Shown: positions 438 to 29,295, numbered from the whole stretch's first letter. The stretch: DNA of 61,715 nucleotides, filler included, from Diploschistes diacapsis (GCA_023645945.1; 5 parts of 5 records of this genome joined end to end with filler, not necessarily neighbours in it); one strand, 5' to 3'. Program-made: numbers and translations. Notes: a model not told the origin generated them from the letters alone.

Positions 438-2367
<1,930 letters not shown>

Positions 2368-2467
2368 GATGAAAGGATACTGGAAAAAGAAGCTTTGACA
2401 GAAGGAGAGTAACGGTAGAGAGTTGTTGTCTGGGGGATACACAAGTTTTGGACTTCAGTGAGAGAGA

Positions 2468-2531
2468 GAAGCTTCAAGGTTCTCTGCAAAAATTTCTGGA
2501 GCAGCGATTAACCAAATGGAGCTTTCCAGAA
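2468..2531. promoter_or_regulatory. Heat-shock-element-like nGAAn inverted pairs upstream of hsp60
   Basis: GAAgcTTC (2468-2475), TTCtgGAG (2494-2501) and TTCcaGAA (2524-2531), 100-165 nt upstream of the ATG. TGCACGTGCA palindrome at 2577-2586. Only two-unit HSEs, so function is inferred. Confidence 0.5.
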
Positions 2532-3357: not shown

Positions 3358-5146
3358 TCAAATCGCCCAGTCCTCTCCCCAGTCCTCGCCTTCAGCATCT
3401 TCATTCAGAGAGGTGTCGATGGCTTCTTCTGGTACGTTATTTCCCATTCCGAGAGCTCCTTCACTTCGAGCACTTTGTACTCCTATTAGTGCCGCATTAC
3501 CTCCATGGAATGCATTTACTCTATTAACACTAGTTGCTTGAGCATTCGGAATAAAGTGACCCATTTGGTTGAAGCTTGTGGACGTGCCCTGAGCTCCACC
3601 ATGGTTACTTGCCTGCCAGGCACCTTGCTGATTCGTCCTCAGAACCTCGGATCCGCTGGGAACCGGATTACCAGCCTGGTAATTAATTCCAACATCAAGT
3701 GGCATCATTGTGGGCACCTGATTCGCAACTGGACCAGCGAAACAGTTGCTAATGTTGATATCGGTGGCCATCTGGCTACTAGTGGCAGCCGGGATCGAAA
3801 AGTTCATCAGGTCGGTCATCTCCCAGTTGGTTGGCAGTGAGGTTGACGCAGTATTAGGAATGAGGTTACCCAGATAGCTTGTCATGCCATAGCCAGAGGT
3901 CATCGCAGGAAGCGTGGCGGCACCGAACACATCACTGGACTCACCGGCTGTGCCATAATTGACGTTTGTTGGAATGAAGCTTGTCATATCCATTATCTGA
4001 GAGCTTTGGCCTTGGTTGGTGTATGAAGGGTACAAGTGGGCTTGCTGCATGAACGGATTCAACTCTGTTGTGTACATTTCCCTCCCTTCATACGTGGCTA
4101 TAGATAAGTTAGACTCTATTTGAGTCATCATGGAGCTGGTTGGGTACAGACCTTGACCATTGGTCCTATACGAGGGCCGAGTGTTCGTGCCCTCGTATTG
4201 AGCACCCGGGTCGCCGTTGTACGACCAATTGGCGGCTGCGCCAACGAGCCCGTCTCCCGGAAAGCCAAAGCTGTTGTTGGCCAGGGTTTGGTTGTCGGCC
4301 AGGGTTTGGTTGTCGGCGTTCGTTGTCGCGAACCCGACAATCTCCTGGAGACGGTTACTCGAGTCCTCAGAAAAGCGGAGGGTCACAACCTTTGAGTCGG
4401 CATGGTCTTCTTCGCCGGCTGTCTCCTCCTCGTCGCCTTCAAGCTGATCGACCTTGCTTACCAAAGCGGTGCCGCCGGCGACGTACTCCTCATCGTCGTC
4501 GTCGGTATCCGACTCGCTCTCGTCCATCCACCATGCCCCACGTTTCTTGCCGATTTCAACACCGAGCGCCTGGCTCTCCTCCAACTTCACCTTCTTGTTC
4601 TTTGCGCGCTTGCTGGTGCGAGCTGGCAGAATTTTTTCTTTCCCTTTGCCAGTCTTACGCCTTGTTCGTCGCTTGCCTGGTACGAGCTCGGTTGCTTCTG
4701 TCTTTGGGACATATGATTCGTTTGAAGAGTCATACGTCCCTTTAAACCTTTTGGTCTTGTTCCCTTGGTTGGGATTATCGTCGTCGTTCTCGTTATAGTT
4801 CAACAGATTGCCTTCTATCTTCTTCCGCAGCTTCGCCAGGTGCTGGATAATTGCGTTTCCCGTTACGGAAGGCGCAACTTCGGGACCACATTTGTCCCAC
4901 GGTATTTTGATGCCGTCTTCCTTGCAGATCTTGTCGACTGCAAGGAGGAGCAGTATGTTTTGCTTCTCTGTGGAAATTGCAACTTTAGCTCATTTTATTT
5001 AGTCTTGACGACTGCGGAAGAGTATTGGATACGGAGTGGAAAGGGGTGGGGGACTTACCACTCCAACGGATGATTGAACGGGTTTTCGGGCGCTTTGGCT
5101 TGGCTACCCCAGTGGTCGCCATGTTCCGAGTTGGGAGTTTACCCAT
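3358..5146 (-). CDS. Cluster member A: N-terminal Myb/SANT-like domain protein with long basic/acidic then Q/N/M/S-rich tail; exons 5146(or 5122)-5059, 4967-3358
   Basis: Phase-1 intron GTAAGT(5058)...GCTAAA...CAG(4968) gives SIIRWSEKQNILLLLAVDKICKEDGIKIPWDKCGPEVAPSVTGNAIIQHLAKLRKK, which continues in frame into the 481-aa ORF. The W...LLL...W...A...HL.KL pattern fits a single Myb/SANT-like HTH (pattern recognition, no HMM run). Confidence 0.85.
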
Positions 5147-5270
5147 TTTGGTCGTTGGTTCGTTCAGTCTTGTCGCCTAGAGGGAGAACATGATATCAGC
5201 GGATGTGGTCTTCATGTCAGTGACCTTGGGCTTTGGAAGAGAATTCTTACTGATCGAATTCTCTTGTGCA

Positions 5271-5466
5271 GTGTTGCTTGCAGATGTTTCAAAGGTCTCT
5301 CGGTATTTCATGAGAGCTCTGGATCAACCAGCGTAAGGGACGAGACAAGCTGGCTTGGTCGTGGTTACGACAATGTGTCAGTTACGTCTACTTTCCTTCG
5401 TGCTCTCGCTGATGTTGCTCGCAGATGTATTCAAGGTCTCTTGAAGTCTCGTAAGAGCTCCTGAGC
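5271..5466. repeat. Diverged direct duplication (~141-nt spacing) inside the predicted 5'-UTR intron of member A
   Basis: gtgttgcttgcagatgtttcaaaggtctctc...gagagctctgga (5271) vs atgttgctcgcagatgtattcaaggtctctt...aagagctcctga (5412). Confidence 0.7.
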
Positions 5467-6170
5467 ACTGGCCAAAAGGAGAAGAAGAACTTGATCCGGT
5501 TATGATAGTGATAGTAGGTCAGCTATCTCAAGTTACTCTCTTGCTGTGAAAGCTAAATCTGGGAGAGCTCTACTCAACCCATGCACTCGCTAGGAACGAT
5601 GAGGTTGAATGGTGTATGTGGGATGTTGTGCGAAACGCTTCGGTGCATAGGGGGTGAAAAGGAGGACGAGGTACTTACCTAGTGAATTCCAGGTCGTCCT
5701 TACGTAACACCCTGATACTCGGGACTGGTATTGCCTAATACGGAAAGTAACGATCTCGAAGGAAGTGCTCTGCAAGTTTGAAAATAAGGTGTCTTACTGC
5801 CGAATGTGAGGTTGATCGTGAAGATGAACGGCACACGGAGGCAAAGGATGCTGACAACAATTTCTCGATTAGGCGAGCGGTAACGGACTGTGACCGCTTC
5901 TGACTTGTTCCCGTTAGAGGACTAGCTATGAGTTAGGTTGAGCTGCAAAGTGAGGCCATTAACTTCTCTTTGAATGGTAAGGATTTATCATGTGCAGCAC
6001 GATCTCAAGTCCACCTGGACGAATTAGTTGAAGACTTAACCCTAGAACAAGTGGTATTTCAATGCGTTTGCGAAATAGCACTGGCTGAGATCATGCAGTT
6101 GACGTACAGCCTTCGAATACAGACCAGGACACTGTCTCACCCTAGAAGATTATTCTGAGAATATTCACTG

Positions 6171-6972
6171 GAGAGCAAAGAGTGCTTCGGCGCCTTTACG
6201 AAGCTCCACGGTGTCGACCCACAAGAGGCCAGCGAGTGCTTCAATGGTTTTATGTAAGTCTACGGTGTAGATCCACGAGAGATTAGAGCGCTTCGGTGCT
6301 GCTACATAATTCTAAAATGTCGATAGGAGAGTAACGAGCGTTTTGACGTCTCTCTATAGCTTCACGGTATTGATTCGCAAAAGAGCAAAGAGTGCTTCGA
6401 TACCCCTATGTTACTCTGCTATTTCGAATCCACGCAAGAACAAAGACCGCTTCAACCTTTCTGGGTAATTTTATGCTGTTGACCCACGAGAGAGCCAAAA
6501 GCTGCTGCAAGGCCTTTCAAAGTTCTGCACAAGGTTTAAGAGTGGAACAACAAGGGGAGCTTTACCATCTTTGACGAACTTGTACGGAGTCACTCTATCA
6601 AAGCGCAAGGTGAGTATTAAAACTTCTACAACCTCTACAAATCGATTCATAAGAGAGCAAATATGATCGCATCGCCACTACGTATTTCTATGAAATTGGT
6701 CTACAAGTGAGCAAAGGGAGATTCAACGCTCCTACAGGCTCGCACGGGGTCAATCAGCAAAAGAGAAAGCGCAGCTTCAGGGTTCCTCTCAAGTTCCGGG
6801 GATTGACTGATAACAGAACAAAGGTAGCGTTAACGTCCCCACGAAAAATTACGGGGTCAATATACTGAAGAGTGATGGTAGGTTCAATTTTTCTACGGTC
6901 TTTAATGGAATCGATCCATCAGAGAGCAAAGACAGCTTCGACTTATATACGAACTCTCCGCGCTGTTGTTCC
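6171..6972 (+). repeat. Highly degenerate tandem array, ~15 units of ~54 bp
   Basis: Unit starts include 6171, 6225, 6279, 6381, 6653, 6707, 6761, 6814, 6868 and 6922. Approximate consensus GAGAGCAAAGANNGCTTC-N8-TAC/TAT-N6-TACGGNGTCGATCCACNA. Confidence 0.85.
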
Positions 6973-8922
6973 CAGCGAAAGGTTCCGGCATGCAAAAGCA
7001 GGCTACGATAGCACTCTTACTCTGAGTAACCGCCTCAAGAACTTGATAGACGAGCAAATACTTCGATGGGTTCACCCAGCCTCGCAGTCCCAAACCGAAT
7101 AGTAGAGCTCAAGCCTCTATTCGCTGACCACAACAGCAGACTCCGCTCTATACAGTGTGGATTACAGAGAGCCGCTGTGTCTAATAGCTAGGACTTGACT
7201 GGGTGAACAAATAAAATATTAGCGTCCTCCCGAGCTGTTGCCAGCTTCCAGATACAAACAGGAAGGACACCCTAAAAAGAGCTGAAATCAAGCATTGTAG
7301 GGTCACGGCATGCCTCATATAGCAATACCACAATCAGAAAAGCAACTTCTAGAGCTTGAAGAGGAAAGGAAGTGCTCCGACGTTCCTCTGGGATCACAAA
7401 GCGCACGGTTACAGGATACTATCTATAACTGATCATAAGTATTTAGAAGGGGTATCCGAAACTTCTAACTGGCCAGACTTTGAATTTGATGCCACTCAAG
7501 CAGAAAGGGGCGAAATCCGGGTTGATGGTTGGCCGGTGTCTTCGAACCACACTTTTGCATACTGCAATACCTGCCACATGTCAGAGGTACTGAATAGAAG
7601 AGCTAAGAGTACTTCAACATGCTTACCATCTGTGACAGGCTACATTCGCGCAGGGCCTTGAGATTTTCATAGAAAATGCCAGAGTGGCTGGCTCCAAGAA
7701 GATGGTTACTGAGAATAAACCGTTGACCGTTACAGACCTTCTAAAGTAAATAATCATCCAACTTCCTACACAGCTTGAACCCTTGCTCCAAGTTCTCAGG
7801 ATACTACAAGATAGTAGAAAACTCTTTGACATGCTTGTTAATTGCGGAGTGGATGCGGCGTTTTCCTTCAGCGACTACAAGATGCCTTAGAACATATGGT
7901 TGGCCCTGCGTAAGGACTACTGGTGTCGCTAATATTGTACAGCAAGTTACGCCCTGAACAAAGTTTCAACCTCCAGAAACATGCTAAGATAGCATTCTTA
8001 ACTCGGACAACAAAGTTGTAGGCAGCAAATCTAAGGTACCTGTAGGCTCTGAGCGCTCCGACAGAACCATTTGGGATATTCATCCTTTACATCTCCTTCT
8101 AAGAGACGTGCCTGTTTCTTCCGAAAACACAGAAAACACAGAAAAGAAGTCTACGACGCGCGAGGCAAAATTCCATGTTATGGAGTTTAGGGTCCGTAGA
8201 GTAGACTAGTAATCCATTCCAAAGAGGCGGCAGAAAGATATCCTCAAATCAATACTGTCATATTGCTCGCCCTGCGTTTCCACCTGAGAGTGCTGGGAAA
8301 GGGTATGATAAGAATTCGCCAGCTTAGGGACAGAGTGCTGTGCTGTGGAACCCATTCTGTCGATATAGCCAATATTTCTTGTATTTTGGGGGTAGTAACA
8401 CTTAAATATCAAGTCAAAGCCTTCACTAACCTATTCAATGTTCAAAAGCAGTTGTTTGAAGGTGCAGAAAGGTAGGTATCCCTCCGTGTCTAGCAGGCAA
8501 TTCTACCATAACAAGAGGTAAGCAGTACGCCCCAATGAAATTATTGAGCATATTAGACTCGGTAGGACACCTTAAGCATAGCTTCACTCGAGATGGCCGT
8601 CTCTAATACTTCTAATTACACTTGTGTAGCTCAAGAGCATGGCGAAGGAAAATAGGAGAACAAAGGGGTTCATGTTAAGCAACTCTCTTTCAACGCTTTC
8701 TGCAGCTCCCTGTGTCTTATAGCTACTGATATGTCCGCAGATTCTCTGAAAAGAATAAGTTCGGTCGAAATCATGGAATTTCAATCCACAACAAGTAGTA
8801 TCTTTGCTTAGCGAGTCCAAAAGCAATTAGTACACGCTTCTAGATTATCAAGTCAGTGGAGAGCGGACTTCATATCTTGAGAAGCGATATTAGTGTACAT
8901 ACTTTGCTGCAGCGAGTAGATC

Positions 8923-9605
8923 TCAATCGTCCTCTTCAAACTTGCGCTTTAGGGCTTGTCTCATTTCATACCCTTCGCCCGGCGCCGCCGACTCCTTGAT
9001 GTCCTCCTTACTAACCTCTCCGGCAACCTCTTCACCGATCTCAGTCTTGACCTTGGTGACCTTGCCTTTTCTCTTCGTAGGGCTCGAGTGCTCTATCTCC
9101 GGCGTTACGGCTAATGATCCCTTCTTCGAAGCCCCCTTCGCCTTCATTTTCAAAGGACTTCCATCGTCAAGTTCATCGCCAATGTCACTCGCGGCGTCCG
9201 CACCCCCTTTGCCTTTATGGCTGGGCTTGGAGCTAGGACCCCTAACTTTCTTCCGCAGGATCGCGTAGTGCTGCTTGATAGCGTCGGCGCTGCCGCCCAT
9301 CTCCTGGGCAATGGCTTCGGCATTGAGAACCAGGGTAAAGGGTTCCCGGTCTCTCGTGGATGAAGTCTTCAGAATAGCAAGTAAAAGTTGCTCATGAGTA
9401 GTGGCTGCAGCGAGAAAGTCAGTAGTGTGGTCGCGGACACAGGCAATATGACAAGTTGTAGGAAGATACTATGCCGCTCACTCTAGTATCGGAAACCCAG
9501 CTTGGGCCGGACACCAAAGGATACTGAAGAGCCCGTTCGAGCTATTCCATCGCTAAAGTACGTACAATTCCACTGGATTCCCTTTCCTATCTTTGGTTTC
9601 GCCAT
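8923..9605 (-). CDS. Cluster member B: small Myb/SANT-like protein with K/E-rich tail; exons 9605-9566, 9404-8923
   Basis: GTACGT(9565)...ACTGAC...CAG(9405), phase 1, gives MAKPKIGKGIQWNSTTHEQLLLAILKTSSTRDREPFTLVLNAEAIAQEMGGSADAIKQHYAILRKK...SPTKRKGKVTKVKTE...KRKFEEDD*. Confidence 0.85.
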
Positions 9606-10558
9606 ATTTGCAGGTTCTCCACAAGTCAACAAGTAATGTCCCTATCAGGTAAAGAGATTTGAGACCGTTGGAACAAGCTAGACCATGGTGTTAGCATAAT
9701 CTTTGGATATGATGGAACACTGACCGGTTTTTAGATTTTGTCGCTTAGGGGCAATGATATTTTAGAGGAAGCTGAATACTAAGGGTTGGTGAGATAGATA
9801 AAGAGAGCGTCACTAGATGTCCTACACTGTGCAGCTCCCGTGCCTTCGCCATCGAAGTGTGAAATGTAAGAGACCGAATATACTCAGGCTATTCTGCTAA
9901 CCCTTTGTGAACTATTTGGGAACTCCCTTGAATGTCAGAGGAGCTCGGGTCGTAGGGTGGTCCGATATGCCGCCATGGCGACGTGATTTCGGTTCTTATA
10001 TCTGGTGTTCATCAAGCCCATTTGATTCAGTCCACGCATATTCTTGATTACCTTTTTAAAGCGTCCTTTGAGTATCATGGCCCTTGAAACTATTCCATTT
10101 CACTCGCAGCTTCGAAGCCTTGTAATGCAACATTGCCATAAGCGAACAAAGTTGATTCGACCCCAGAGACACGATGACCCGAGTTCAGAGCTTCAGGACA
10201 TAATCTAAATAGCGTACGGTAGGTTATCATTCTATCATAGCATTAATTATTAACTAACATATCAAACAGCACGCAGAAATGGGTCATCTGCACTTGAGTT
10301 CGATCTGGAAAACATAATCTGACCTATAAGCATGAGGTATTCTATGTACGAGAGCAAGATTTCCATTGTTTAACATCGATTCGGCAGCAATATGTTAAGA
10401 GCCGGATAGAAGAATAAAATAATATTCTTAGGCAACTACTAATAGCACAGTTCGTTTCCAGACATCGCAATCGCCAACACTGAATGTGCACAACCGAGGA
10501 TCCCCATTATACTGGCATCACATTATTCCTTATGTTCTACGGATCCATGTCGTTTGAT

Positions 10559-11538
10559 TTAGTCGCCTTCTGCAAGGGAGCTTTCTTCCATCTTGTACCA
10601 TGTTCCGTCGAAGTCTGCGAATGCTTCAGTGGTAGGGTAAGGCAGGTTCCCTCTATGGCCCTGCTCAAGGGTTGAAGGATCGACCGTGCCCGGAACTGTG
10701 TAGTTCACGTTTCCCGCGTATCCGTCTTCAATAGCTTGCGAATGGCCGGGACCTGAAGCCAAGAATCCCATATGCTTGCCGTGTCCGTGTGAAAGATTTG
10801 GGAAGTCGGCCGTACCATCAGTGGAATACTTGAGCTTTCTGCCGTGTAATCCAAGCTCTGGCGTGTTTGCCTTGATATAGTCATTGAAGGCATGAATTGA
10901 ATGACCACTAGGTTCCCGTAGATCCATTCCGGTTGTCATTGGCAGTGGCATTAGCTGCGATCCGGTAAGACATTGGTCCGTTTCCCAAGGTTGAAGCTGG
11001 AATGTGTATTCGCCTGGGTACACGTCTGCTGAGGCTTCTTCCTTTACAGTTACATCTTCATGCTTGAGTCCGTGCCTGAATTCGTCCTTCACCGCGCGTT
11101 CTCCTTTCTTGCCTTTTTTGTTAGCGAACGCGAGCTTGGGTCTTTCTTTCTCCTCCTCGTCATCGTCACTGCTGACTTTGCGCTTCTTGGGTTTAGTGGT
11201 ATTGGCGTCCTTTTTGGATTGGCTGTCTGGACTATCTTTGCTGTTATATGGAGGCTCTGGGCCAATGGCATGAGCCTTCATCATACGCTCATAACGCTTC
11301 GCTCTGGATGGAAGGTAAATAATCAGCCGGACATAGTCCACCAGCACTCGGAGCGCTTTGCTTACGCTGCACCTTTGCTGCAGATGCCACACTCCTTGGC
11401 AACCTCCATGAAGTCGATCTATCATCGTGAGCAGCGGTAACATCTCAGCAAGGTAGACGCTCTTACACGGCCATTATTGGACCAGCGGATGCATGATATG
11501 AGGAATTTGAACTGATCATCGCTATTGAAGCGTACCAT
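10559..11538 (-). CDS. Cluster member C: fungal Myb-like DNA-binding domain protein; exons 11538-11467, 11418-11366, 11303-10559
   Basis: Two GT-AG introns give MVRFNSDDQFKFLISCIRWSNNGRIDFMEVAKECGICSKGAAAKRYERMMKAH. I recognise this as a widespread Pezizomycotina Myb-like motif (FL..CI.....G.+DF..VA....I....AA..RY.R). NLS-like PKKRKV follows. Confidence 0.9.
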
Positions 11539-12700
11539 CTTTATGGAGCCCACACAAAGTCTTGCTAATGTCTTGTGAATGAGAAGACTGTCGCGAGAAG
11601 GTATATGGTTAAGCAAGGACAAGATATTTAATTCGAAAGAATTAGGAAACAGTATGTGTTCACGGTCTTCTCTAACTTGTCAGGGCGGAGATAAGAGGAA
11701 ATAAAGCTATCGGAAACTTCAAGCTCGGTGCTGTCAGGAAGATTGACTGTGACAACAAGATACGTTGAGGAATGTCTGTCATTTAAAGAACACCTGTATG
11801 CCACAGTATACAAGCTCTGGAAAGAGATAGCCCATTAGATTTTCTACCCTATTGATCTTTGATGCGATATTGAAAGTTGATGACAGCGATATTTTTTAGC
11901 ATCTGTACGGGCCTGAAAGCAGCTAGCTGCAAGGCATAAAGCCATGGTGATTGCTGGCTGCATGATGTTCGGAGGCTCCGCAACTAACGAAGCTTTCTTT
12001 CATGCACTAAACATCTACAAGACCCTTAAGCGCAGACGGTGGAAAGACATAGAGCAGCGAATAGTGGCATTGTTTGTCCTGCATCTTCGTAGCTGCAAGG
12101 CGGTGAGATGTAAAGAACTTGGAAGCTCTTCATGCGCGATTCCGATGCAGCTAGCCGATTATGGAAAGAATTCGAGTTCTCAGTGCCAAGAAATTCAGGG
12201 GTTCTTGATATTAAGAATAACTTGCAGACCAACCACCTTTTCCGCCAGCTTAGGTGTGCACAAGAGCTGGAGGAATGCTTCAGATCATTTATAGGACAAG
12301 TTTGTAAGTTCTGGAGAGAGCTGCAAGTAGCTCGGGCCTATTTTGTGCTTGATCTTAAGTGTCCCCTGGGGCTCTTAAATGGGCATAAAGTGATGGAACA
12401 AGGTGTCTGGTTTCCAAATTATTCTTGATATCGCCTGTCGTGGTAGCACTGCGACTTAAAGGACAGAGTCTCATCTTTTATCCAAGGGATCCAATGCTTA
12501 TTTGGGTTGTGGTCTCTGCGACTAACGGGTTTAGTTACGCTCATTAAGATGTCTAAGAGTGTGCTCGGTCAGGTGAAGAGGTTGCTTCAGTGGAACTAGG
12601 CAAATAACTTTCAGAAGAAAGTGGGCAGACATCTAATCATTTGATCTGCTTTACACGTGGCGCACTCGCTCAGAGATTATCTTGAGGATCTGAGGTTACT

Positions 12701-12860
12701 CCTTCCTTCTTTTCTTTATCGCTGAGGCCCAACAACTTGACGCACTCGCCCAGAAATCAAAACTGACAATACCGAAGTTACCTTTTCCCCCGTCTTTCCA
12801 CCGCTGAGGCTTGACAACTTCACCTACACTATCACCTAACTAAGGAACTTCACTCTACGC
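12701..12860 (+). repeat. Short diverged direct repeats in the leader of member D
   Basis: cgctgaggcccaacaacttgacgcac (~12720) vs cgctgaggcttgacaacttcacctacac (~12802), with a partial third copy aacttcactctacgc (~12846). Confidence 0.55.
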
Positions 12861-12936
12861 TATCAGAACCTGGTGAGCAATCTTCCTACGCATCATAATT
12901 GTAATCGAAAGTAACGCATGAATCTCACCAGCTACA

Positions 12937-13519
12937 ATGTCCAGCGGAGCGGAAACTCAACCCAAGCGTGGTTCCAAGGCAGCAGGGTCCGGCCTTGACT
13001 ACCTCGGGATCGCCGTTGAAATCTGTCGCTATACAGACCGTAGTTCAACGGTAAGTACTATGCTCATACCACTCACGTTCGCAACTGTTTCTAACATTTT
13101 GGACAGATTGACTGGCAAGAAATAGCCAAGAGGGCCGGCTCAGCCTCTGTCGAATCAGTGCGTACCAATTGGAATAAGTTCAAGAAGAACTACGAGATGG
13201 TGCCGATGAACTCAGGCACCCGCCCTGCGAAGGCAACGAAGTCACAGGCTAAGGATGACGCCGTTCTCAAGCCTAAGTATGGTTTTCCACCTTATGCCAA
13301 CGGTCATTCAACTAAGTCTACTGCGTCAGAGCTACTAAGGTTACCAAGAGGAAGAAAGCCAGTCTCAAGCAGAAAGCAAAGGGGAAAGCCGAGCAAGAAG
13401 CAGCCGATATCACTAATGATATGAAGGAGCAAATCGATGCAATTTTTGACGAGAAGAACTCCGAGGCCGACTTAGTTGTGAAGGAAGAGGTTGCTCTCGA
13501 TGGTCCGGATGACGAGTAG
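12937..13519 (+). CDS. Cluster member D: small Myb-like protein with K-rich then acidic tail; exons 12937-13050, 13107-13276, 13330-13519
   Basis: GTAAGT...CTAAC...CAG and GTATGG...CTAAG...CAG introns give ...GLDYLGIAVEICRYTDRSST|IDWQEIAKRAGSASVESVRTNWNKFKKNY...LKPK|ATKVTKRKK...VVKEEVALDGPDDE*. Confidence 0.85.
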
Positions 13520-13891
13520 GAGAAAAGCTACACGAACGTGCGTGATGTGAGCTTGTCTCGTCGTGGAACGCATGACTTCCGGTCTTCCAGCTAGAAATCA
13601 GGCTGAAAGTATTTGACTGAAACACGATCACCTAGTAGTTCCTCATATAACTGTGCTCATGGTGTCCCAATCACTTATTTTTATCCACCAGAAGCTTTCA
13701 TCATACTCTACGAACACAACACAAGCTTGAGTTTGCAATTCATGCACAACCCTCTTTAAAGTCTTCCCTCCTCGTCTCCCTAATCTCTCAAAAGTCAAGT
13801 AATCCTTGTCAGATTCCTACCAATCTTTCTTTCCTTAATACTATTGATTCGCCTTACACGAGCCAACAACACTTTCCTGGATTCTTTCACT

Positions 13892-14496
13892 GTGCCTGGC
13901 AGGATTGATATCTTCGCTCTGGCCATGGAGATTGTCCTAGTGCTAGAGCAAAATGAAAAAGTGAGTTGAGGCTACCGTCTACTTTTTTACCAGCCAACTC
14001 GATTCTATCACTGCAACTGATGTTGATGCAATGCCTTTTTAAGTCGACTGGAATGTTCTTGCGCAGAAGCTGGGCTCCGCTTCCGGCCACGCGCTGTCTG
14101 TGTGCTGGTGTACCACCAAGAAGAACTACAAGAAGAACGGGTCTCCCGCAGCTTTTAACGCTCGCTAATCAATCGGTTTTTAGAGTCTAATGTATTTAGC
14201 TTTGCTGACCTCGACCCTATAGCTCTCCTGAAAAGCCAAAGGGAGTGGCTGCCAAGGACTCCCCCAGTGGAAAGGGGAAGGTTGGCAAAACGGCCCCTGC
14301 CAGGAAAAGGGGCAAAAGAACTATCGACCAAATCGTGACAGAGGCTCTGAACGACGATGAAGCTAACAAAGAGTCCCCTGTTTCAGTCAAGAAGATCAAG
14401 ATGGATGATGGTGTCAAGGATGAAGCGCATGAGGTTGCCACTGATGCGCAGGTTGCGGAGTGGGCTGAGGATACTCTTTCTTCCACTTGGGCCTGA
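13892..14496 (+). pseudogene. Cluster member E: apparently decayed paralog of D and F
   Basis: Exon-like segments GRIDIFALAMEIVLVLEQNEK|VDWNVLAQKLGSASGHALSVCWCTTKKNYKK...|SPEKPKG...VKKIKMDDGVKDE...WA*. The expected start is GTG (13892), the intron-1 acceptor reads TAA|GTCGAC (14040-14042) instead of TAG, and the intron-2 donor position reads CTAATC (14165) with an in-frame TAA. Confidence 0.7.
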
Positions 14497-15038
14497 TGGT
14501 GCTCGTTAACTCCGTGGGTGTCTGCTTGACGAGAAGCCAGCTTGAAGATGATCGTGCAGTTTTTACATGGCTATGATGATTCGATAGCTGCACTATGAAG
14601 CACATGGAATTGTTTTATCGGGTTAATAGCTACTTCTGCAGAGAAACACTCGAATTGAGATCTGATCTGCCACACTTATGAATACTTGCAGCTTACTGCA
14701 ACTACCTGAGTATTGATGACTCTCGTCGGCCTGCTTCGTTAGGAGAAAAGATCAGGACCTATACGCCTAGCGGCTATATAAGAGAGCTGTTGATATAAGG
14801 CGTGAGTTCATTGAAGGCTACATTTACACAACATGACTTAGCTGTAGCTTTTTAAGATCGGCTGCATGATCTGTCAAACAGGTAGAGAATCGTGAGGGCT
14901 CTAAACGGGATGCTCAAAGAGCGTTCGAACAGCACTTGACATTCCTGGAAGCATGGGGGGCACGTATCGTTTCCTTTCCACGATCGTATTCAGCGAGTTA
15001 GTGAATGCAACCGCAGAGACCGCTTCACCTCGTTCCTC

Positions 15039-15046
15039 TATAAATA
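15039..15046 (+). promoter_or_regulatory. TATA box of member F
   Basis: TATAAATA followed by a CT-rich leader, then a 5'-UTR intron (15164-15209) and the ATG at 15228. Confidence 0.55.
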
Positions 15047-15227
15047 CCTTCACAAGAATTTTCTTTTCACTTCAACTCTTCCTTCTTACATCTATCCATC
15101 TCCCATCTCGCTCTACGCTCTCGATTCCGCATCGAAACTTCGCTTGCATACCGCTTGTTATAGGTAAGTCATAGGAAGAGATTACGCTCATGAAGCTGAT
15201 CATCCAAAGCACATTTCAAGTTCCAAC

Positions 15228-15895
15228 ATGTCTGACAGCATTGCTGAGACCACACCCAAAAAGGGCGGTAAGCTCGACCATTACGCCCTTGCCTACGAAG
15301 TAGCTATGGCCTATGAGTCCGGTGAGGGAAAGGTAAGAGTCTAGATTCTACGGCTTACCAGTAGCACTTGAGAATTTTTGCTTACCGCTCTCACAGCCAA
15401 ACTGGAGCAACATCGCAGAGATTGTCGGCTCTGCTTCTGGGCAAGCGGCCCTGAAGTGCTGGCAGGGCATGAAAAAAAAGCGCGAGGCCGAAAGGAAAGA
15501 TGGACCCAAGGTCGATGGTACTAAGAGCAACGGCGGAGACGATGCCTTGAAAGCCAAGTATGTTGCTCACCCTCAGTCCCTAATTCGAGCCTCTGACGTA
15601 GATCTACAGAGCTACTAAGGTTGAGAAAAAACCCACCACGCCCAAGAAAAAGGCCTCTAAAGCTACCGCCGCTGCCACTGCCGAGCCTGAGACTTTTGTC
15701 GCAAAGACCCCTTCGCCCAAGTCCCCCAAGGCCAAAAAGGGTGGTAAAGCTGCCAAGCAGAGCGTTAAGGTACAGGAGAGCCCTGAGGAGACGAAAGTGA
15801 TCGAGGAGATTGGCGCTATCGAGGCTGATGGTAGCGCTGAAGTAAAGTCGCAAGGGAATGAAGTCATCAACGACCAGCAGGATGTCGAAGAGTGA
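15228..15895 (+). CDS. Cluster member F: small Myb-like protein with histone-H1-like K/A/P tail; exons 15228-15332, 15397-15557, 15610-15895 (absent from the ORF track on this strand)
   Basis: Splicing gives MSDSIAETTPKKGGKLDHYALAYEVAMAYESGEGK|PNWSNIAEIVGSASGQAALKCWQGMKKKR...LKAK|ATKVEKKPTTPKKKASKA...KTPSPKSPKAKKGGK...QQDVEE*. Same two intron positions as D. Confidence 0.85.
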
Positions 15896-16192
15896 TTCTT
15901 ACGTTGGCGACATACGCTGGCTTTATGATCTATAGCGTCTCTTGATAGTTCCGAGTCGAATTGAAGGGCGGATCACTTACCTAGTAGGTGAAGCAGATAC
16001 GTGAACGAATCAAACCAAAGGGTGATTCTAATCATTAGCGTTTGATTCTCGTCGTGCTAGCTGCCTTGGCCACAACCCTTGACTATTATTCGGATGCAAA
16101 TAACATTTATTCTTGCTAAAGCAGACACATACAAACTCCTCGCTGCAGAATTCCCACCTAAAGCCTGACGCATCGATGAAGCTACTGCGTAT

Positions 16193-16781
16193 CTAATGCT
16201 CCTCCATTTTAATAGCAGTGTCTGTGTCACCGGATACCACTTCATCGCTGTCTCTCTCCTTCTTAACGATCTTCCCCACATTTTCTTCAGCGTCGTTCTC
16301 GGTCTTCACCGCAGTCCAAACTTCTGTAGAGAAGGTATTTGCAGAGACAAGAGCTGGATCGACGTTGGTGGCGAAGGCGGTATCGGAGCTACAAGCCGCG
16401 CCACCGGTATCCGTCTCCTCTTCTTCTTCCTCCTGGGTATCCTCCCCCCCTTCGCTCTTCTTCCGAGCAGCACGAACCCTCCGCTTCCTTTGCTTGCGCT
16501 CTTCCGGATCCGTCGCGCGGGTCCTGCGGCTGGGCTTCTCACCCTCCATATTCTGTTTGAAGCGATGGTACCGCATCCTTGCCGCGTGTCCCTTGCCGAT
16601 GCCCATGTCGTCGGCTACCTTTTGCCAGTTCACCTGTTATACGTCAGAGCACATCCGGACATGATCTAGCCGCTGTTGGTCACTTTACGTTCTTCAGCTC
16701 CATTTGTTTGAGGATGACGTAGAGGAACTTGGCGCAGTCTTTGTCGTTCGCTGGCGGCGCTTTACGCAGAGAGGAGGCCAT
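16193..16781 (-). CDS. Cluster member G: fungal Myb-like DNA-binding domain protein; exons 16781-16689, 16633-16193
   Basis: GTAAAG...CTGAC...CAG phase-0 intron gives KDCAKFLYVILKQMELKN|VNWQKVADDMGIGKGHAARMRYHRFKQNMEG, a recognisable conserved Pezizomycotina motif (KFLY.ILKQ.....+W..VA....I..GHAARMRY.RF). Confidence 0.9.
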
Positions 16782-17703
16782 AACTAAGCGCTGGAATTGT
16801 AGAGACTATTGGAATGAATTGATGGGCTTGAGAATGACGAGAACTCACGCTAGCATAAGCGAAGTGGAATGAAGTGAGGTCTGGAGTGAAGAACACGAAA
16901 CAGGAAAGGGGATTTAATAGTTCGACGCGGGCCGCTCATTTAATAAGCTTCTGCTTCTGCCATTTTACCAATCAATATGTCCGTTGATCACCATCCATGT
17001 CCCGTTGAGAAAATATCAAAGGACATTCATGGCTGAAAGAAGCTTTTGTTGCAGCTTTTTACCCTCTCCAAAAGCACCTGCGGCAGCATGCATGCTAGCC
17101 CCTGAGTTTTGTCGCTGTCGGAAACTACGCTTTTTGGCCTAGTGTCGGGTAAAGACCTTCGCTTAGTGCCCGATGCACGTGCCTGCCTGTCTGTGCACGG
17201 ATCTTAGGGAACCTCCGCAGAACATGCAGCTTCGCGATAAGAAGCTTTGCATCTTGGTATGTCCTCATGCAACGTAGGAGGTAATCGATACCTTAAGCTG
17301 TTCTCATGCTGAGTACAAGCGCTGCAGCGCATTGTCAGGTTCATAGGCTCTAGGAAAGCTACTTATGAATTTTAAAGTAGTCTTGACACTAACCTTGTAT
17401 CTTCAAGTTTCTTCCATCTTATCGACAACGAGATCAATTTGATACCTTGTAAAAACCAGCAAAAAGATAAGAACAGAACGTTGCTTTGATCTCGATATAT
17501 GGTTTGTAGTAAACTCTCTCTAACGCTGGTGGCTATGCTGAGTTGACTTGCACAGACAGCTTATAATTAAAGCGCGACGTTCTTTGGAGACTTCAAATAG
17601 ATCACAAACTTCGCTTCCTACCTTGAACCTAATTGGATTCTGAAATTGCTCTCCCCGCTCGTTTCTATCTCACACACAGAAAGGCCAGGACAGGGCAACT
17701 ACC

Positions 17704-19086
17704 ATGCGCATAATCATTGTCGGAGCGGGCCTCGGCGGCTTAGCAGCCGCATATTGCTTTGCGCACAAAGGACACGAGGTCAAGCTCCTCGAACGGCGGC
17801 ATGAATTGTCGAAGAAAGGTGGCAGCATATCCATTCGGCCCGGCGCAACGCGGGTTCTGATATCCTGGGGACTAAAAGAGCAGTTCGAAGCCATAAGCGA
17901 CAACTTTGCTACCACACTCTTTCGTGATCTCTATACTGGAGAGATCATCAATAGCAGCATTGCGGTCGAAGTGTCAGACTATCCTGACTGGGGTACCGAG
18001 AGAGGAGTCACCCAGGAGGTTCTGTACAATAACGTTGTCAAAGCTGGCGCCGAGATCAGGATAAACTGCCAAGTCGACGATGTTTGCGAAAACGCTTCCG
18101 GCGCAGTAGTTGTACTTGGAGATGGAAGCACGATCATGGGGGACATTGTTCTAGTTGCTGACGGTATCCGATCACACTTACGGGGCAAGATTCTTGAGGA
18201 TGCCTCTGCCTCGGTAGATCCATTGGCGAGCAATGTTACACTCTATGGGATGAAACTTGGGTTAGAGGAAGCCCGCAGTGATCCCGACCTAGCGAAGGTA
18301 TGCGAAGACACGAGCTTGAATGTTTCGTTTGGAAACGGGACGTTCGTTGTGTTTCGAGTGAATGAGAAATTGCAGCAGTTTGGGGTTCTTTTTGGCGTGA
18401 AGGGGTTGACAGACCAGAAAGGCCTATGGGATGAGGTAAGCTCTGACGGAAACTCTCTGAAGGCGCTCGCTCAAATGCCATCTCAGGATGGGAATGTAGA
18501 TCACGTGCGAAAAGTATTTTCGAATGCGAACCCAGCTCTAGTTGCTGCATTGAAGCTAGCCACTTCGTGCGACCGCTGGAGGCTCGCTGAATTGCCAGAC
18601 CTGCCTCGCTGGTGTAGCAAGGGCGGCCGAATCCTTCTACTGGGTGATTCGGCTCATGCGATGTATCCGAGCGCCGCGCAGGGCTTCTCCCAAATAATCG
18701 AGGATATTGGAGCTCTAGAGTACCTGCTCTCCCTTCCAAAGCCTATCCGTTCTCTTTCTGCGTTATGGGAAAGCGTTCGCAAGCCTAGGGTGGAGAGAAT
18801 CAAGGAGTACTCTAATGCGAACACTCAAATGTTCCTTGGAAACACCCCACGTCCCCCCAAAATGGCTTCGTCCTCCCCAAAAAACCCCCAGTCAAAGGTT
18901 AGATCCTTGAAGTATGTTACGCCAGACTCGTCGGCCCCATTTAATACTGCTGGCTTCTACAAATGGGCATATGACCATGATGTGATTCAAGAGGTTTGTT
19001 GATCTATTTCGAACTAAGCTATTTGGATTGTTTACATCTTACAGGTGCGGGACCGTTTGAACGCCGAGATATTGCCAAAACTATGA
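17704..19086 (+). CDS. FAD-dependent monooxygenase (salicylate hydroxylase-like, group A); introns 18436-18486 (in frame) and 18994-19044
   Basis: GAGLGG Rossmann motif, DG motif (VLVADGIRS) and GD motif (LLGDSAHAMYP..AQG). The last exon ends ...EILPKL*, a possible weak PTS1 variant. Confidence 0.92.
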
Positions 19087-19209
19087 ATTACACATTTGAT
19101 GCGGAAGTCGTCCTAATGAAGACGGTGCCCAAGCCCAAGTACATCCAAATATGAGGTACTCCACGTGTCAAACAACTTTTCTAATCCTACACTCACGGTG
19201 CACTCGACT

Positions 19210-20110
19210 TCACCAAGTCGTTTTGGTGCCCTCTGCCAATGGTTTCAATGCCTTCACTACCACTCAATCGAGCAGTCCAGCCGGCGTCACCCAGAAGGCC
19301 GTCTGCTGCACCCAATGCGGCTAATAATCCGCCACGCTAACCGCCTCGCTTCCCATCCTTTCCAGGCTCGTCCTTGCTATTTCCCGCGAGCTCGGGACCA
19401 GCCACGACGTTGTTTCTCTGCGATCCTGGTTGCTCTGCACGCTCCTAACCACGACTTCGAGGATTTCGACTCCCTCCCCTGCAGCACGTTATTCGGCAGC
19501 GATAGCACACGTCCAGGCGTGGATGGTGCCTCTTGTGGCTTAATAGACGGACAGAGGGATTTCCTTGTATGCTTGGAGACTTATATTCATAAGCAAGGAA
19601 CGAGATTGGCGCTGGAGGATGGTAATAAGAGATAACGTCAGGTGCATGGTGAAGGTGATGTTCAGCGATATGAGCGCGCGCTGATCTCCGCCTCGCTGTG
19701 GCTGGAAAAGGGCTTGAAGTCCTGATCAGCGGGCCGCTGCCGCCGACGTTGTTTATGAGAATGGTGAGGGGGATGGTCGAGACGGCTTCGGCTATGGATC
19801 GAATATCTGCGGCCGTAAAGTCGAAGGCATTGGCGATGACGTTACGGAATTGAGTATTGGGATGGGAGGGCCGGAACTCTTCGCGCACGCGCTCAAGCTT
19901 CTGTGCGTTTCGGCCTTGCAGAACCATGTTGAAGCCGTGATCGCTAAGCTCCTGCGCGAAGCCGCGGCCTATGGTGTCGCTGGCGCCGGCAACAAGGGGC
20001 CCAGTTAGTTTCTTCGCCATCATGGTGGGTGAAATAGTGCTTGATAGAGGAGGGTTGGAGGTAGAGGAAGGGTGCCGGAGTCGTGGTGGGTTGTGATTAA
20101 TGCTTTCATG
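19210..20110 (-). pseudogene. Short-chain dehydrogenase/reductase (17beta-HSD / 3-ketoacyl-CoA reductase-like) pseudogene
   Basis: YLQPSSIKHY...NWA/frameshift/LVAGASDTIGRGFAQEL...LQGRN...LINNVGG. Further frameshifts follow, the catalytic YxxxK reads VY*ATR, and there are additional in-frame stops (AAE*, DY*PH, LD*). Confidence 0.88.
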
Positions 20111-22156
20111 GTCTGGGTTCGTACAGCTACTGTAACTCGGCGCGGGTTTCGTGGCTCGTTTTATCTATCCGATTTGGAGAAGACTATCTACCCGGTTGTG
20201 CCGGTCGCGATGCAATTGGCTCGCTTGATGCTCAGGCTCCGAATCCGGCCCGTTCACCCGCGGACTAGATTTTGGTGCGAAAGAACGGCTGTTGGAAACG
20301 TGAACCAAGAGGTCATTGATGCAATGATATGGTCAGGCCAGTTAAGAGTAGAAAGGGGAAGTATTCGGCGCCGACCTAGAGCATCGCCAAACCTTCAAGT
20401 CGAGCATTGCGCTTACTAAGTATTATAGATGTTGAAAAGACGTCTCGTGCTGGGATATCCCCACCAAACATCCTTTCTTGAACACAGTGGGTAGGAAATT
20501 GATTTACCTTCCCTAAGAACACTCTGCCTGGATCTCAAGTGGCAGTTCATAAAAGACTTGAAGCCAGCGAGCGCTGCTGGCTCACGCCTCCATTGGCGCA
20601 CGAGCGATTATCCCCGATCCATGACCAACGTCTAGTTCAGCGCGTAGAATAAGGTATGGGTATAGAGAGCCGGACAGCCAACTGCCGTGTTCCTGAGACT
20701 TGATGGGGCAAGACGCTAGTTGCTAGGGTGGTTATGAGGATTTCCAAGTTCTTTTCCGGGCCACAAAGGCCCTCAGTCACAGGTCGCGCGGGGAGAAGCG
20801 CAGTGCGCAAGGAGAGATGGTTGCTGTGGCAGCTCACAACACTTTTGGGGCTGCTGAACTTGGCAGCGTATTGAGGTGAGGCGAGCAGGAGTGCCAAGGG
20901 GAAAGTCCCATCAAAACGAAAGAGCAGATAAGTCGAAACCTGGGATGGGGCAGGGTACTTTTATGGAACAAATTTTTGTGTACCTTCATGGTGTATCGAC
21001 TTCGGAGACAGCAAATTCAGCTTCAGCTCAAGGCCATGCCTTCCAAGGTCTCTATCGCAAGACATGGGGATGTTGATCGTTGTCTACCACGATGGTCCGC
21101 CGTTGAGAGTCGGTGTTAACGAGTACTATTCCTCCTAGAAGCTTCTTCCTTGGTGCGTCACTACCATACATCATCCCGAACGGGTTTCTAAGACCACGTC
21201 CTTGCTCGCAGCCTGACCTAGCAGCTAGCCGGAGTGCGACGCGGACACAGAGTCCAAAGAGGGAGAGGCGGCGAGCGTCGCCCGAGATACGCTGGAAGCT
21301 CAGATCCGCTAGAGCAATGGTCGTTGTCCTTTCAAACCCCATGTCCATCTCAAGCTTCCTTCCATTATTCTTGGATATCCTCACTACTCTGAACTTGCCG
21401 TATATCGTCGGGCACGTTCGTTATCCGACTGACCTCTGAACCCTAGCCCTGTGTCTGCCTCGGGCTTTGGCTTCCCTTTCTAAATATGCGATGGCTCTCG
21501 AGGCCGGCACCACGGAGCGGTGAGAAACGGTACAAAGTCCCGCCGGGGATGCGTCGGCATTCCACACGCATGCGCCGTGTTCATGGGGCCGGATATGGGG
21601 TTTGGATTGCAGCACGCGAGGATGCCCTTTGATTGCTCTGGATGCTGGGCTTCTCTCCCTTCATGATGCTTGTCAGAGAAATCTGTTGCCGCTTCGTTTC
21701 TCTCATGGGCGGTTGGGTTAGGGCATCGGTAGCTGGATTGGTGCCGCTTTTATGATTTTGAGCGAAAATTCGTTAACGTTTTCTCGCCCCGTATGTGGAG
21801 GGTAGGGAATGCTTGCTAGGAATTGACGGTCTATGGTTTGTTCCAGTGCAAAGTTCATCGAAATTTATCAAGTACGGCTAACTTGCAACGTGTACGAGGG
21901 TCTTTCTACTTTGGAAGACGGTACAATGGACTGGAACGTGTACTGGATAAGATTACAGTGATGTGATGGTATTCGTATTAGGCTGTGCTAAACTGATGTC
22001 ACTGTTTAGCTTGTGCTTCGTTGTAAGATACATGTCCTCCTTTAACAAAGCCTAATGACGTTAAGATTCACCCCGGAACACCCAGGCGCATAACGCTTGA
22101 AGAAAGCAAGAGAGTAATGATCAAGCTTCAGCGGACTTCGAAGTTTGTTTAAAAGC

Positions 22157-22945
22157 TTAGACCAAGTCTCCGAAGATGTCACTAGCCTCGGCTTTAAGAT
22201 CGCTGATAATGTCAAGCTCGTTCTCTTCATCTTCGTACTCCTGCTGTTGGGCCTGGACGTGATTCTGCGTGATCTTGGCTTTTTTGCCTGGCATTGGCTT
22301 TTGGACATCTTCATCAAGATCGACAAATACGCCATTACTAGTGGCCGGGTGGTACGGGTAAACGGGTGCCTGTTGATTGTGATTCCCGTTGCCCTTCATA
22401 GATGTCTTCTGCTTCTTTGCATCGCTTGCACCCGCATCAGAGCTACCTTTCTTCTTTACGCCGTTGGGCTCTGTGGTTGCGAGGATATCTTCGTCATCGG
22501 ACTCGGCCTTGATCTTGCGCTTGCCGGGAGTCGATAGCTTGCTTGGGGTTCCTTTCTTCGGGGTGTTGTTGGTGCCATCGGTAGCACTTTCTCGCTTGTT
22601 CTTACGGAGACGGAAAAGGCGCTCCTTAATGGCACGAGCGGTGGGCTTCACCTCGCCTTCTGCTGCCTGACGTGTTAGAACAGGATGGGATAGGGAGGGG
22701 AGTACTTACGCCAAGCGTCGGCAACTGCTTGTGCGTTGGGTGAGATATCGGAGGTTTCAATGATCTTGAGGAGAAGCTGTGAAGGTAAGACAAGCACAAA
22801 TCAGATGTGACAGAAGGAAGGCTTTCTCTAATGGGCTGAACAAGGAGGATACTGGAAGCTTCAATGAAGCTTCCGGAGGTGAGGGTGGGAGGTATGGCAG
22901 ACGGCTCACCAGCTGGTCATTTTCCGCGGTCCATTTGATTGGCAT
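22157..22945 (-). CDS. Cluster member H: small Myb/SANT-like protein with TPKK/TP.K-rich tail; exons 22945-22910, 22776-22710, 22662-22157
   Basis: Splicing gives MPIKWTAENDQL|LLLKIIETSDISPNAQAVADAW|PEGEVKPTARAIKERLFRLRK...TPKKGTPSKLSTPGKRKIKAE, a recognisable conserved fungal hypothetical family (MP+KW..E.D..LLL.I+ET...WP...KPT.RAI.ERL). Confidence 0.9.
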
Positions 22946-24552
22946 CTTGGCGTGTCTGCGAGTGATGCAGGGTAAAGCTGAGAAACAAATGAGAAGTAAT
23001 GGTCTACTTCTGGAATGGAAGAAGCGAGCTCCGGATTGATAGAGAGGATTTCTGAGAAGTGGAGAAGAAAGGAGAGCAGGAGGGAAGGTAAAGAAGATCG
23101 AAGGAGCTCCAAGGATGAGCTGAGTGAAGGTGAGTAAAGAAATGTTCCAATATCACGGAATGAAGTAGCTTGTCAGAGTGTGGTTAGCTTTGAGTTATGG
23201 ATTTGTGCTTTTAAGTTGGCTGGCGCTGTAACATGTAATTCATGGAGCGATAAGCAGCTAGAGAGCGAGTCTTCCATTTTAATCGGGTCAAGTCCTTGGG
23301 AGTGCATTGAAATGCCATGCTCCGAGCGGACCAACTCTGCCGCAGCAAGTAGCTTGGAGACATGTAGATTGAAGCACATCGTGGACAGCAGGAGACAGGA
23401 CGGCATGTTGTTACATGTTACCCGAACAGGCCATTCATTCTACGCTAAACCCAAAATATCTGCACGGTCTTGGCGTTGAATTTGTTTGAATTTCACTGCA
23501 AATCTTCACAACCTCCTCGTTAGTCGAACTCGAAAAGTAAAAGCATCTGCATCCACCGCTCTGCCCCCGCGCGTCATCAAGCCACCAGCCAACCTCGAGT
23601 CTGTACCGCTAATGCTGCTGAACTGCACGGTACATGACAACCAGCAGGGTTCCTAGTATGAACATGTTCTCAACCGGCAAAAAAGAACTACATACCCCTG
23701 CCGATTCTTCTGTGAGATTTCTGACGAGGCGGTCTCCCCAGACAATAATATGTCTTCTGCAAGCAAGCATCCCTTTGCGCATTATAGCCTGTGGTTTTTG
23801 ACGCATTGCAAGATCATACGCGGTAACGGCAAGATACCCCGATGCGTCAGGCTATTGACCAGATACCCTAAAGACCACAGTCTCTCCCGTGCCAGGCTGG
23901 TGTTCTTAACATGTACCACCTGGTAGGTATATTGTCAAAGTACCTGAACATGTCTTCTTCCCGTTTCTATATCGTGCTTCGGCAAAATAATGGCAAGGCT
24001 TAATCTAGTTCAGTTATGCTTCGCTTTTCTAAAAGGAGATCCAATCAGCTTTGGGCTAAAGAACCATTAAAAGATGACTTCTAACTAAAGACTGGCCCTG
24101 CGTTTGGAAAGGTTTCCAGTATTCATGACCGGATATGATGCCAAGTTCATTCAGTTACACTCAAACGGTATTGAATATACATGAACCTCTCCTCGCCTCT
24201 TTACATTGCTCTTCACACCTCAAAACTTCTTCTAGACCTTCCACCTTGACTTGGCATATCGACATATTGTCTTCGCTGCACTTCATCTCATTCACTTTCT
24301 TCTCCCTTAAGACGCAAGTATTGTAGGACCTTCAACAGCTCACTATCGACTATCCATCTGATTCTCTGACAAGGTAAGCTCATTCCAATCTCACAAAAAC
24401 CACCGCACTGTATGTCTTGAACCCAAACCCTTGTTCAGGCGGCTTTCTTAATTTCTCCGTTATCTTCTGTTCTGGGAATCTCCTTAATTCATCTTCGTGC
24501 AACCATTTCCATACTTCACCATCTACCGATTTGACTCTGCTCGGCCTTCTAG

Positions 24553-25309
24553 ATGCCCGGTCAAAAGACGGTCAACTGGACAGAAGCCAACCGCGCAAAG
24601 GTCCTTGATGCAATGCTAGCATTGGAACGCATTAAGGTCGCTCGGGAAACTAGCGAACAGGTATCTTCCACCCGCAGATCTTTTGAGGTACAGTTTCATT
24701 GACCTATACTAAGATTGCAGCTTATGTTGGTCAGTACTTGCTGGGTATTGTGTATAGCACTTCTGACCGTTTCCTGCTATAGGCGACGGATGTACGGCCA
24801 AAGCTGTCAACACCCTTCTGGGAACAATCGGTCCTCGCAAGCGCAGCACGGTTCTCGCGGCCGTGTCGGGAACTGGCGCTGGTTTATCTGCCTCTAAGGC
24901 CAACAATTCTGCTCCTCTGGGTAAATCCAAAGCCGATCCGCTCTCACGTGTCATCAAGGGAAAGGTCACGAAGCCTAGGCCATCTGCTGCGAAGACCAAG
25001 AACGAGGACAACATTTTGAAAGGATTCCAGGCCGAAGTCGATGCCGGCGAACTCCCTGAGACGCCACCAATGAGCGGCGAAGAGTTTGACAATCCCGTGA
25101 TCAAGCGTGAACCTGCTATCCCGGGGAGTCGTCGCGTCTCGCCGCGCAAGAACAAGAGCACCGTTGACTATAAAACCTTGTCTGGTCGTGAAAGCGACGA
25201 AGAGACCATAATAGCGTCGGAAGGGGTTTCTGAACCCACGGATGGAGAGTTCGACGCCATCAAGGAGGAAGTTGCCATCGGTGACCACGAGGAGGAGGCT
25301 GTGTTTTGA
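24553..25309 (+). CDS. Cluster member I: Myb/SANT-like protein; exons 24553-24660, 16-nt micro-exon 24714-24729, 24783-25309
   Basis: Gives MPGQKTVNWTEANRAKVLDAMLALERIKVARETSEQ|IAAYVG|DGCTAKAVNTLLGTI..., which joins the 148-aa ORF (IKRE, SRRVSPRKNK.VDYK.L, IKEE). The ATG directly follows the acceptor of a 5'-UTR intron (24373-24552). Intron 1 needs an AAG acceptor. Confidence 0.78.
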
Positions 25310-25865: not shown

Positions 25866-25965
25866 NNNNNNNNNNNNNNNNNNNNNNNNNNNNNNNNNNN
25901 NNNNNNNNNTTAATTAATTAANNNNNNNNNNNNNNNNNNNNNNNNNNNNNNNNNNNNNNNNNNNN
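25866..25965. other. Assembly spacer (44 N + TTAATTAATTAA + 44 N)
   Basis: An identical 100-nt construct occurs four times; the linker has stops in all six frames. Confidence 0.97.
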
Positions 25966-29293: not shown

Positions 29294-29295
29294 GG

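Follow-up and report, generated by a model that had tools for sequence, protein, structure and literature searches.

A Putative Old Array of Diverged Myb-like Genes beside hsp60 in Diploschistes diacapsis

Small proteins with a single Myb-like domain make up a large family in the Pezizomycotina, and this family has no tested function. Pfam describes such a domain as PF22980 (Myb_DNA-bind_8, 'Myb-like DNA-binding domain'), and a full-text literature search, itself a narrow check, found no papers under the Pfam or InterPro names of that model, so that membership brings no tested function. The genes associated with Starship elements are likewise single Myb/SANT-type genes of the Pezizomycotina without any other domain; in the portion of the source drawn on here each stands alone at the edge of its element, across from a DUF3435 captain, and the defining signature is IPR001005 (PMC12256816). 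The locus considered here lies in a 61.7-kb stretch of DNA (the window) from Diploschistes diacapsis, where an earlier note had described nine spliced loci, A to I, as a cluster of single-Myb/SANT-like genes next to hsp60 with no known functional description, a claim with which the literature check on PF22980 agrees. Diploschistes diacapsis is a lichen-forming fungus of the Lecanoromycetes.

The view of a single array largely holds for eight of the nine loci: judged from the sequence, A to H (3358-22945) appear to be old paralogues that are related in their heads, the N-terminal domains of about 50 amino acids. On balance it is probable, with considerable room for doubt, that these eight belong to the PF22980 superfamily of fungal small proteins, with I doubtful and E probably decaying, and that each product acts as a lone nuclear DNA- or chromatin-binding factor.

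Relatedness of the Loci and Their Gene Models

The relatedness of the heads was measured by leave-one-out profile searches. The nine spliced heads were aligned and a profile hidden Markov model (HMM) was built without the tested locus (and without all three of D, E and F when any of them was tested), and the search space consisted of the 1657 background open reading frames (ORFs) of the window plus the gene models. Eight of the nine loci (A-H) rank above all 1657 background ORFs, with E-values of 0.027 for A, 1.6e-7 for B, 2.6e-4 for C, 1.1e-4 for D, 0.078 for E, 0.011 for F, 5.4e-9 for G and 6e-4 for H; D, E and F fill ranks 1-3 when omitted together. Direct protein comparison by blastp connects the loci in two sets, one with links between D and F (1.3e-9), E and F (1.1e-10), D and E (3.6e-8), D and G (1.7e-4), E and G, C and D, and C and G, and the other with links between B and H (2.5e-6), A and B (0.02), and A and H. 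The connection of A, B and H to C-G is made through profile methods only. The hhalign program places {A,B,H} against {C-G} with 51 columns in register at a probability of 92% (P 5.4e-7), and none of 100 column shuffles reaches 34.5 (maximum 13.0), with a reversed control at 10.0. Hence the common three-helix pattern that had been claimed for nine loci stands for A-H, by both methods, but not for I.

The loci fall into subgroups, at least two in number: {A,B,H}, and {C,D,E,F,G} with an intron just ahead of helix 2. Intron positions are subgroup-specific and so agree with this division. A and B have in common a phase-1 intron one codon past the first Trp; a phase-0 intron is common to C, D, F and G and lies one residue ahead of the (D/N)(W/F) at which helix 2 begins. 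The same site is found in E, displaced by one base, and D and F also share a second intron, ahead of 'ATKV'.

Splice sites were read by hand; automatic intron enumeration was not selective enough for D, E and F, came back empty for G and I, and for B the two-exon model was the sole open model that it found. Seven loci (A-D and F-H) have ATG-to-stop frames, interrupted once or twice by predicted introns of 47-161 nt whose donors resemble GTAAGT and whose acceptors are YAG, and at the coordinates of Table 1 below an ATG is present in eight of the nine loci and a stop in all nine. The hand-spliced model of G is identical, letter for letter, to the Diploschistes diacapsis hypothetical protein LQ340_002173 at NCBI, which bears a precomputed PF22980. 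Of the nine spliced genes first proposed, then, seven have open frames with canonical introns but E and I do not fit the same mould.

Locus E is probably a decaying copy or pseudogene, because it has no ATG at the start used by D and F and because the donors it requires, GTTGAG and GTCTCC, are both weak. A GTG stands at 13892, and the first in-frame ATG (13925) falls within helix 1; homologous residues ahead of this first Met can still be read. The difficulty with I is of another kind. Its ATG exon bears a W-T-E-A-N...L pattern and can be joined to the tail ORF solely via a micro-exon, either of 31 nt with a 38-nt intron or of 16 nt between two 53-nt introns. The membership claimed for I finds no statistical support: it comes in at rank 132 in the leave-one-out search (E 73), hhalign against the other loci gives probabilities of 1% and 4% under the two gene models, and the exons scanned have no PF22980 match at E<=1. 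In a word-limited database search its only relatives are near-identical tail fragments, 99% and 84% identical.

Age and Extent of the Array and the Myb Label

The conclusion that the array is old and its subfamilies distinct is supported by sequence comparison. When the contig is compared with itself by blastn (word 11, E<=1e-3), no non-self match emerges. The earlier note had excepted D, E and F as retaining DNA similarity, but they are included in this result and are related solely as proteins, at 29-41% identity; identity between copies is at most 41% (blastp). The lack of DNA similarity among the copies implies that the duplications are old. Together with the subgroup-specific introns and the large family around locus A, this sustains the proposal of old, distinct subfamilies in preference to a recent expansion.

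Further copies were sought in two ways. None of the 183 inter-locus ORFs of at least 38 aa between 5147 and 25865 matches PF22980 at E<=0.1, a scan outside which 26 ORFs at 1909-3391 lie, and a nine-locus profile run over the window finds nothing else (best E 1.8). Two candidate extra copies were rejected. The region 36434-36679, a weak match to the A profile, has no pattern on inspection and no Pfam match. An ORF on the plus strand between C and D (11917-12291) matches Myb_DNA-bind_5 (PF13873) at E 0.099 and 13 bits, which is noise among 149 queries, and the nine-locus profile does not detect it.

These sequence searches support the label 'Myb-like' at the level of Pfam in the C-G group and, through remote homology, in A, B and H. 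Pfam scans were made on single exons, and introns split the domain; the cut-off of PF22980, a model of 50 positions, is 27 bits. G passes it on exon 2 alone (43.4 bits, E 2.1e-11). Matches under the cut-off are given by D exon 2 (19.1 bits, E 8.3e-4), F exon 2 (15.8 bits, E 8.9e-3), C exon 1 (19.1 bits, E 8.3e-4, profile 1-20), C exon 3 (11.2 bits, E 0.23, profile 38-49) and a B exon (12.4 bits, E 0.1, profile positions 4-47 of 50). For B, C, D and F, PF22980 is the best or only Myb-type match to the single exons, and it is in register. In A nearly the whole domain sits in one exon, yet there is no PF22980 match, and A, E and H are tied to the family by the profiles built here alone. Classical Myb (PF00249) is not reached in these scans, an exon of D coming closest with 14.3 bits (E 0.044) against a cut-off of 24.4. 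The assignment of the cluster to the Myb/SANT type was therefore borne out in part, by the full match of G and the sub-threshold matches of C, D, F and B, but not as to PF00249 or an established Myb/SANT fold.

Locus A consists of an N-terminal three-helix domain (about residues 23-84) followed by a long tail. A word-based search with A gives four relatives, including Thelotrema lepadinum MMC10_000008, whose identity to A across the N-terminal 110 aa is 52%. When HMMER is run exhaustively from an alignment of five heads, it recovers 470 representative clusters at E<=1e-3, of which 125 remain at E<=1e-10, and locus A scores 85.5 bits, locus B 14 bits (in register), against the profile of this family, which was built from 150 representatives. 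The conserved head reads ...LLL..Q..CN..G.KIPWD.VG...G..ITGGAV.QHLAKLR, and the proteins are long, mostly 300-800 aa. None of the 102 members scanned passes any Pfam cut-off; PF22980 is the commonest weak match (3 at E<=0.01, 5 at E<=1), and PF00249 matches two members, at best with E 0.052. By these profile searches the A-type family is a separate subfamily, much better conserved than B-H and without a Pfam model. Of the loci likened earlier to separate conserved families (A, C, G and H), A does have a large family of its own; G is a PF22980 member with few detectable relatives in a word-limited search. A scan of metagenomes with the A-domain alignment gave two contigs only, of 1.1 and 1.6 kb. 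Simple regular expressions for conserved tail motifs of the family were dropped: of 120 long members they pick out only 13-66, and they are absent from locus A.

The first intron appears to be common to locus A and its family. Among the 150 database models, 46 start at most 7 residues from the LLL motif, just past the intron site, and the upstream [RK]W is present in only 16, which suggests that the first, Trp-bearing mini-exon is often missed in public annotation. The missing mini-exon is probably a systematic annotation error in the A-type family, and it appears to affect many public gene models.

Predicted Heads, Tails and Competing Readings

AlphaFold2 models were made for two heads. The A-type head, modelled from the Thelotrema orthologue with a 150-row alignment, has a predicted local distance difference test score (pLDDT) of 85, with helices at 15-31, 38-45 and 51-67; the G head, from a five-row alignment, has a pLDDT of 65, with helices at 13-27, 34-41 and 46-60. 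The helix layout is the same in both, and each is a three-helix bundle of about 50 residues, as in PF22980. The weak Foldseek rows for the A-type head are helix-turn-helix (HTH) domains (sigma region 4, the GARP domains of ARR10/ARR1, StbA and a homeodomain), and those for the G head are nearly all HTH DNA-binding domains. Because of these layouts and these weak rows, the heads are taken, at the level of predicted models, to be three-helix, HTH-like domains. The term 'Myb-like' is compatible with the predicted structures, which do not prove it, and for the A-type head it is unproven. PDB rows for DEK (E 0.0097, the sole row below 0.01), NOP53 and HMG-D were set aside; they align to low-complexity tail columns.

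The claim of a low-complexity basic and acidic tail was confirmed in all nine loci. Every tail has a net-basic stretch and then a net-acidic end, disorder-promoting residues (S, T, P, G, A, N, Q) make up 40-54% of it, and that of F contains TPKK and SPKAK motifs. The helix-3 segment has a net charge of +2 to +8 in eight loci and of 0 in E.

The favoured reading would work as follows. Repeated local duplication long ago would have built the array, each copy encoding an N-terminal head (helix 1 long, helix 2 short, helix 3 basic) with a disordered tail behind it, in which a Lys/Arg patch precedes an acidic end. The basic helix 3 and the basic-to-acidic tails suggest that each protein by itself is a nuclear DNA- or chromatin-binding factor. 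Contact with DNA would fall to helix 3 of the HTH head, the basic patch next to the head may serve as a nuclear-localisation signal or a minor-groove anchor, and the acidic end could be an activation, histone-binding or auto-inhibitory segment. The genes would then be adjacent through shared origin and not as parts of one machine.

Several results weigh against this account. The leave-one-out E-values of A (0.027), E (0.078) and F (0.011) are marginal, the A-family profile aligns with {C-G} at an hhalign probability of only 29% (P 6e-4), and A, E, H and I have no PF22980 match at E<=1 on the exons scanned. For the strength of the clustering, the remaining 35 kb of the window are the sole standard of comparison. 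Neither the A-type nor the G model has a Foldseek match at E<=0.001, neither profile has a sequence relative in the PDB at E<=0.001, and for the G-type model (pLDDT 65) the HTH domains of Lrp/AsnC, LexA and sigma-4 tie with Myb repeats, so that a Myb/SANT fold is not established by these models.

In another reading the heads would be SANT-like protein-interaction modules, bound to histone tails or partner proteins and not to DNA, and the proteins would act as cofactors of chromatin or as adaptors akin to chaperones. In typical SANT domains the helix-3 face is acidic. Here eight of the nine loci have a net basic charge, in helix 3 as well as in the head overall, and Pfam calls PF22980 DNA-binding, although the narrow literature check found no experimental test behind that name. 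A role of this kind for the heads is therefore unlikely.

The array might instead be a conserved functional module, a co-regulated complex or a stage-specific regulon whose linkage is kept by selection across fungi. Eight related genes in at least two old subgroups still lie within 20 kb despite their lost DNA similarity, the remaining 35 kb of the window contain no copy, and tails with ends of opposite charge could in principle pair. However, no 6-8-mer is common to the nine upstream regions beyond chance (89, 243 and 165 of 300 random 500-bp sets reach the observed maximum), two unrelated enzyme genes break the array, and E looks degenerate. In addition G and I have few relatives (3 and 2 matches in word-limited searches), which suggests fast turnover over a conserved machine. 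A module is accordingly improbable, somewhat more so than SANT-like heads. A bolder form of the idea, to which only a slim chance is given, is that of an ancient, selectively kept locus in which A-, B/H- and C-G-types have stood beside hsp60 since the early Lecanoromycetes or before, with products that would co-assemble on chromatin as a fungal architectural or developmental-switch system not recognised before. Linkage that proved to be kept in relatives would argue for joint function; linkage that did not would mark the array as an ordinary relic of tandem duplication. The array is also an economical target, since one deletion removes the whole set.

It is less probable still that much of the array is non-functional, made up of decayed relics or of over-read ORFs joined at hand-picked splice sites. 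The missing start codon and weak donors of E and the micro-exon required by I fit such a view, independent annotation confirms only G, and the D. diacapsis A protein is itself absent from the word-search matches that gave the Thelotrema relative. Against this stand the seven canonical gene models, the introns kept in position within subgroups, the 52% identity of A to the Thelotrema protein, and G, which has a 42%-identical relative and a 90%-identical fragment.

Least credible, to the point of being nearly negligible, is an origin from transposons, with the genes as Starship-edge MYB/SANT or Harbinger Myb-like partner genes and the array as a mark of insertions: a MYB/SANT family is associated with Starships across the Pezizomycotina, in the portion of the source used (PMC12256816), and AT-rich neighbouring contigs suggest repeat-rich DNA in the genome, but the 25.9-kb contig has no unaccounted ORF of at least 240 aa for a captain or transposase (a distant captain being possible), the ORFs scanned include no Pfam transposase, blastn on the contig reveals neither repeats nor inverted duplications, the genes are found between hsp60 and enzyme genes of ordinary kinds, and the Starship genes have IPR001005 as their definition (PMC12256816, same portion), whereas the best match here to classical Myb, PF00249, gives 14.3 bits against a cut-off of 24.4.

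Surroundings of the Array and Comparison with Known Systems

The window is not one molecule; it consists of five contigs of a D. diacapsis metagenome-assembled genome. Four synthetic spacers (25866-25965, 29194-29293, 32497-32596 and 58420-58519), each made of 44 N, TTAATTAATTAA and 44 N, mark the joins, so genes to the right of 25865 have no physical linkage to the array. Bases 1-25865 are a single contig without N, the first N run beginning at 25866, and all nine loci lie inside it. The description of a gap-free stretch adjoining hsp60, with loci on both strands, was thus accurate (Table 1).

Table 1. Loci of the array and recognizable genes on the same contig, in window coordinates
Feature	Coordinates	Strand	Remarks
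Locus A, 565 aa	exons 5146-5059, 4967-3358	-	one 91-nt phase-1 intron, one codon past first Trp
Locus B, 173 aa	exons 9605-9566, 9404-8923	-	161-nt phase-1 intron, position as in A
Locus C, 289 aa	exons 11538-11467, 11418-11366, 11303-10559	-	
Locus D, 157 aa	exons 12937-13050, 13107-13276, 13330-13519	+	
Locus E, D/F-like copy	13892-14496	+	no ATG at homologous start; weak donors
Locus F, 183 aa	exons 15228-15332, 15397-15557, 15610-15895	+	Lys/Ala/Pro-rich tail
Locus G, 177 aa	exons 16781-16689, 16633-16193	-	full PF22980 member
Locus H, 202 aa	exons 22945-22910, 22776-22710, 22662-22157	-	resembles B
Locus I, doubtful ninth member	24553-25309	+	ATG exon plus 180-aa tail ORF
hsp60 (Cpn60), main exon	441-1964	-	PF00118, E 1e-56; left contig end
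Flavin adenine dinucleotide (FAD)-dependent monooxygenase gene	17644-18999	+	inside array; PF01494, E 1.6e-14
Short-chain dehydrogenase ORF	19448-20164	-	inside array; PF00106, E 6.4e-8

The short-chain dehydrogenase ORF matches its profile only over positions 4-88 of 195 and is an intron-split or truncated gene. The 3.8 kb between A and B (5147-8922) is unusually gene-poor for the contig, with no ORF longer than 102 aa and no meaningful Pfam match. No RNA families are found on the window by Rfam. The short neighbouring contigs contain AT-rich blocks (26001-30000, 32001-34000 and 58001-60000) with a GC fraction of 0.32-0.36, against about 0.48 elsewhere, and these may be repeats degraded by repeat-induced point mutation (RIP). 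The separate contig at 32597-58419 carries housekeeping genes, namely those for an amino-acid permease, an F-box protein, an FSH1 serine hydrolase, a cyclophilin, an Rrp6-like exonuclease with an HRDC domain, and Gpi1; a Myb-like head is found in none of them.

A narrow check of the literature on Myb-like/SANT genes and Pezizomycotina gene clusters, outside which the supplements lie, found no comparable array; within the same bounds, that literature deals with unrelated two-repeat Myb factors and with biosynthetic clusters. The other systems compared were classical Myb/SANT domains (PF00249; c-Myb R2, CDC5L/Cef1 and the SANT domain of Ada2) and plant trihelix GT-1, and the PF00249 cut-off is not attained. 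The array differs from the Starship-associated genes in having eight copies among housekeeping genes, without a captain-sized ORF or repeats. The closest described system is PF22980, whose domain length and three-helix layout agree with the G head, although the model leaves A, E, H and I undetected and is touched at E<=1 by only 5 of the 102 A-family representatives. The family is a known but uncharacterised one, to which the locus adds a further case in the form of an old tandem array, and its eight diverged members at one site tie the subfamilies to a common origin.

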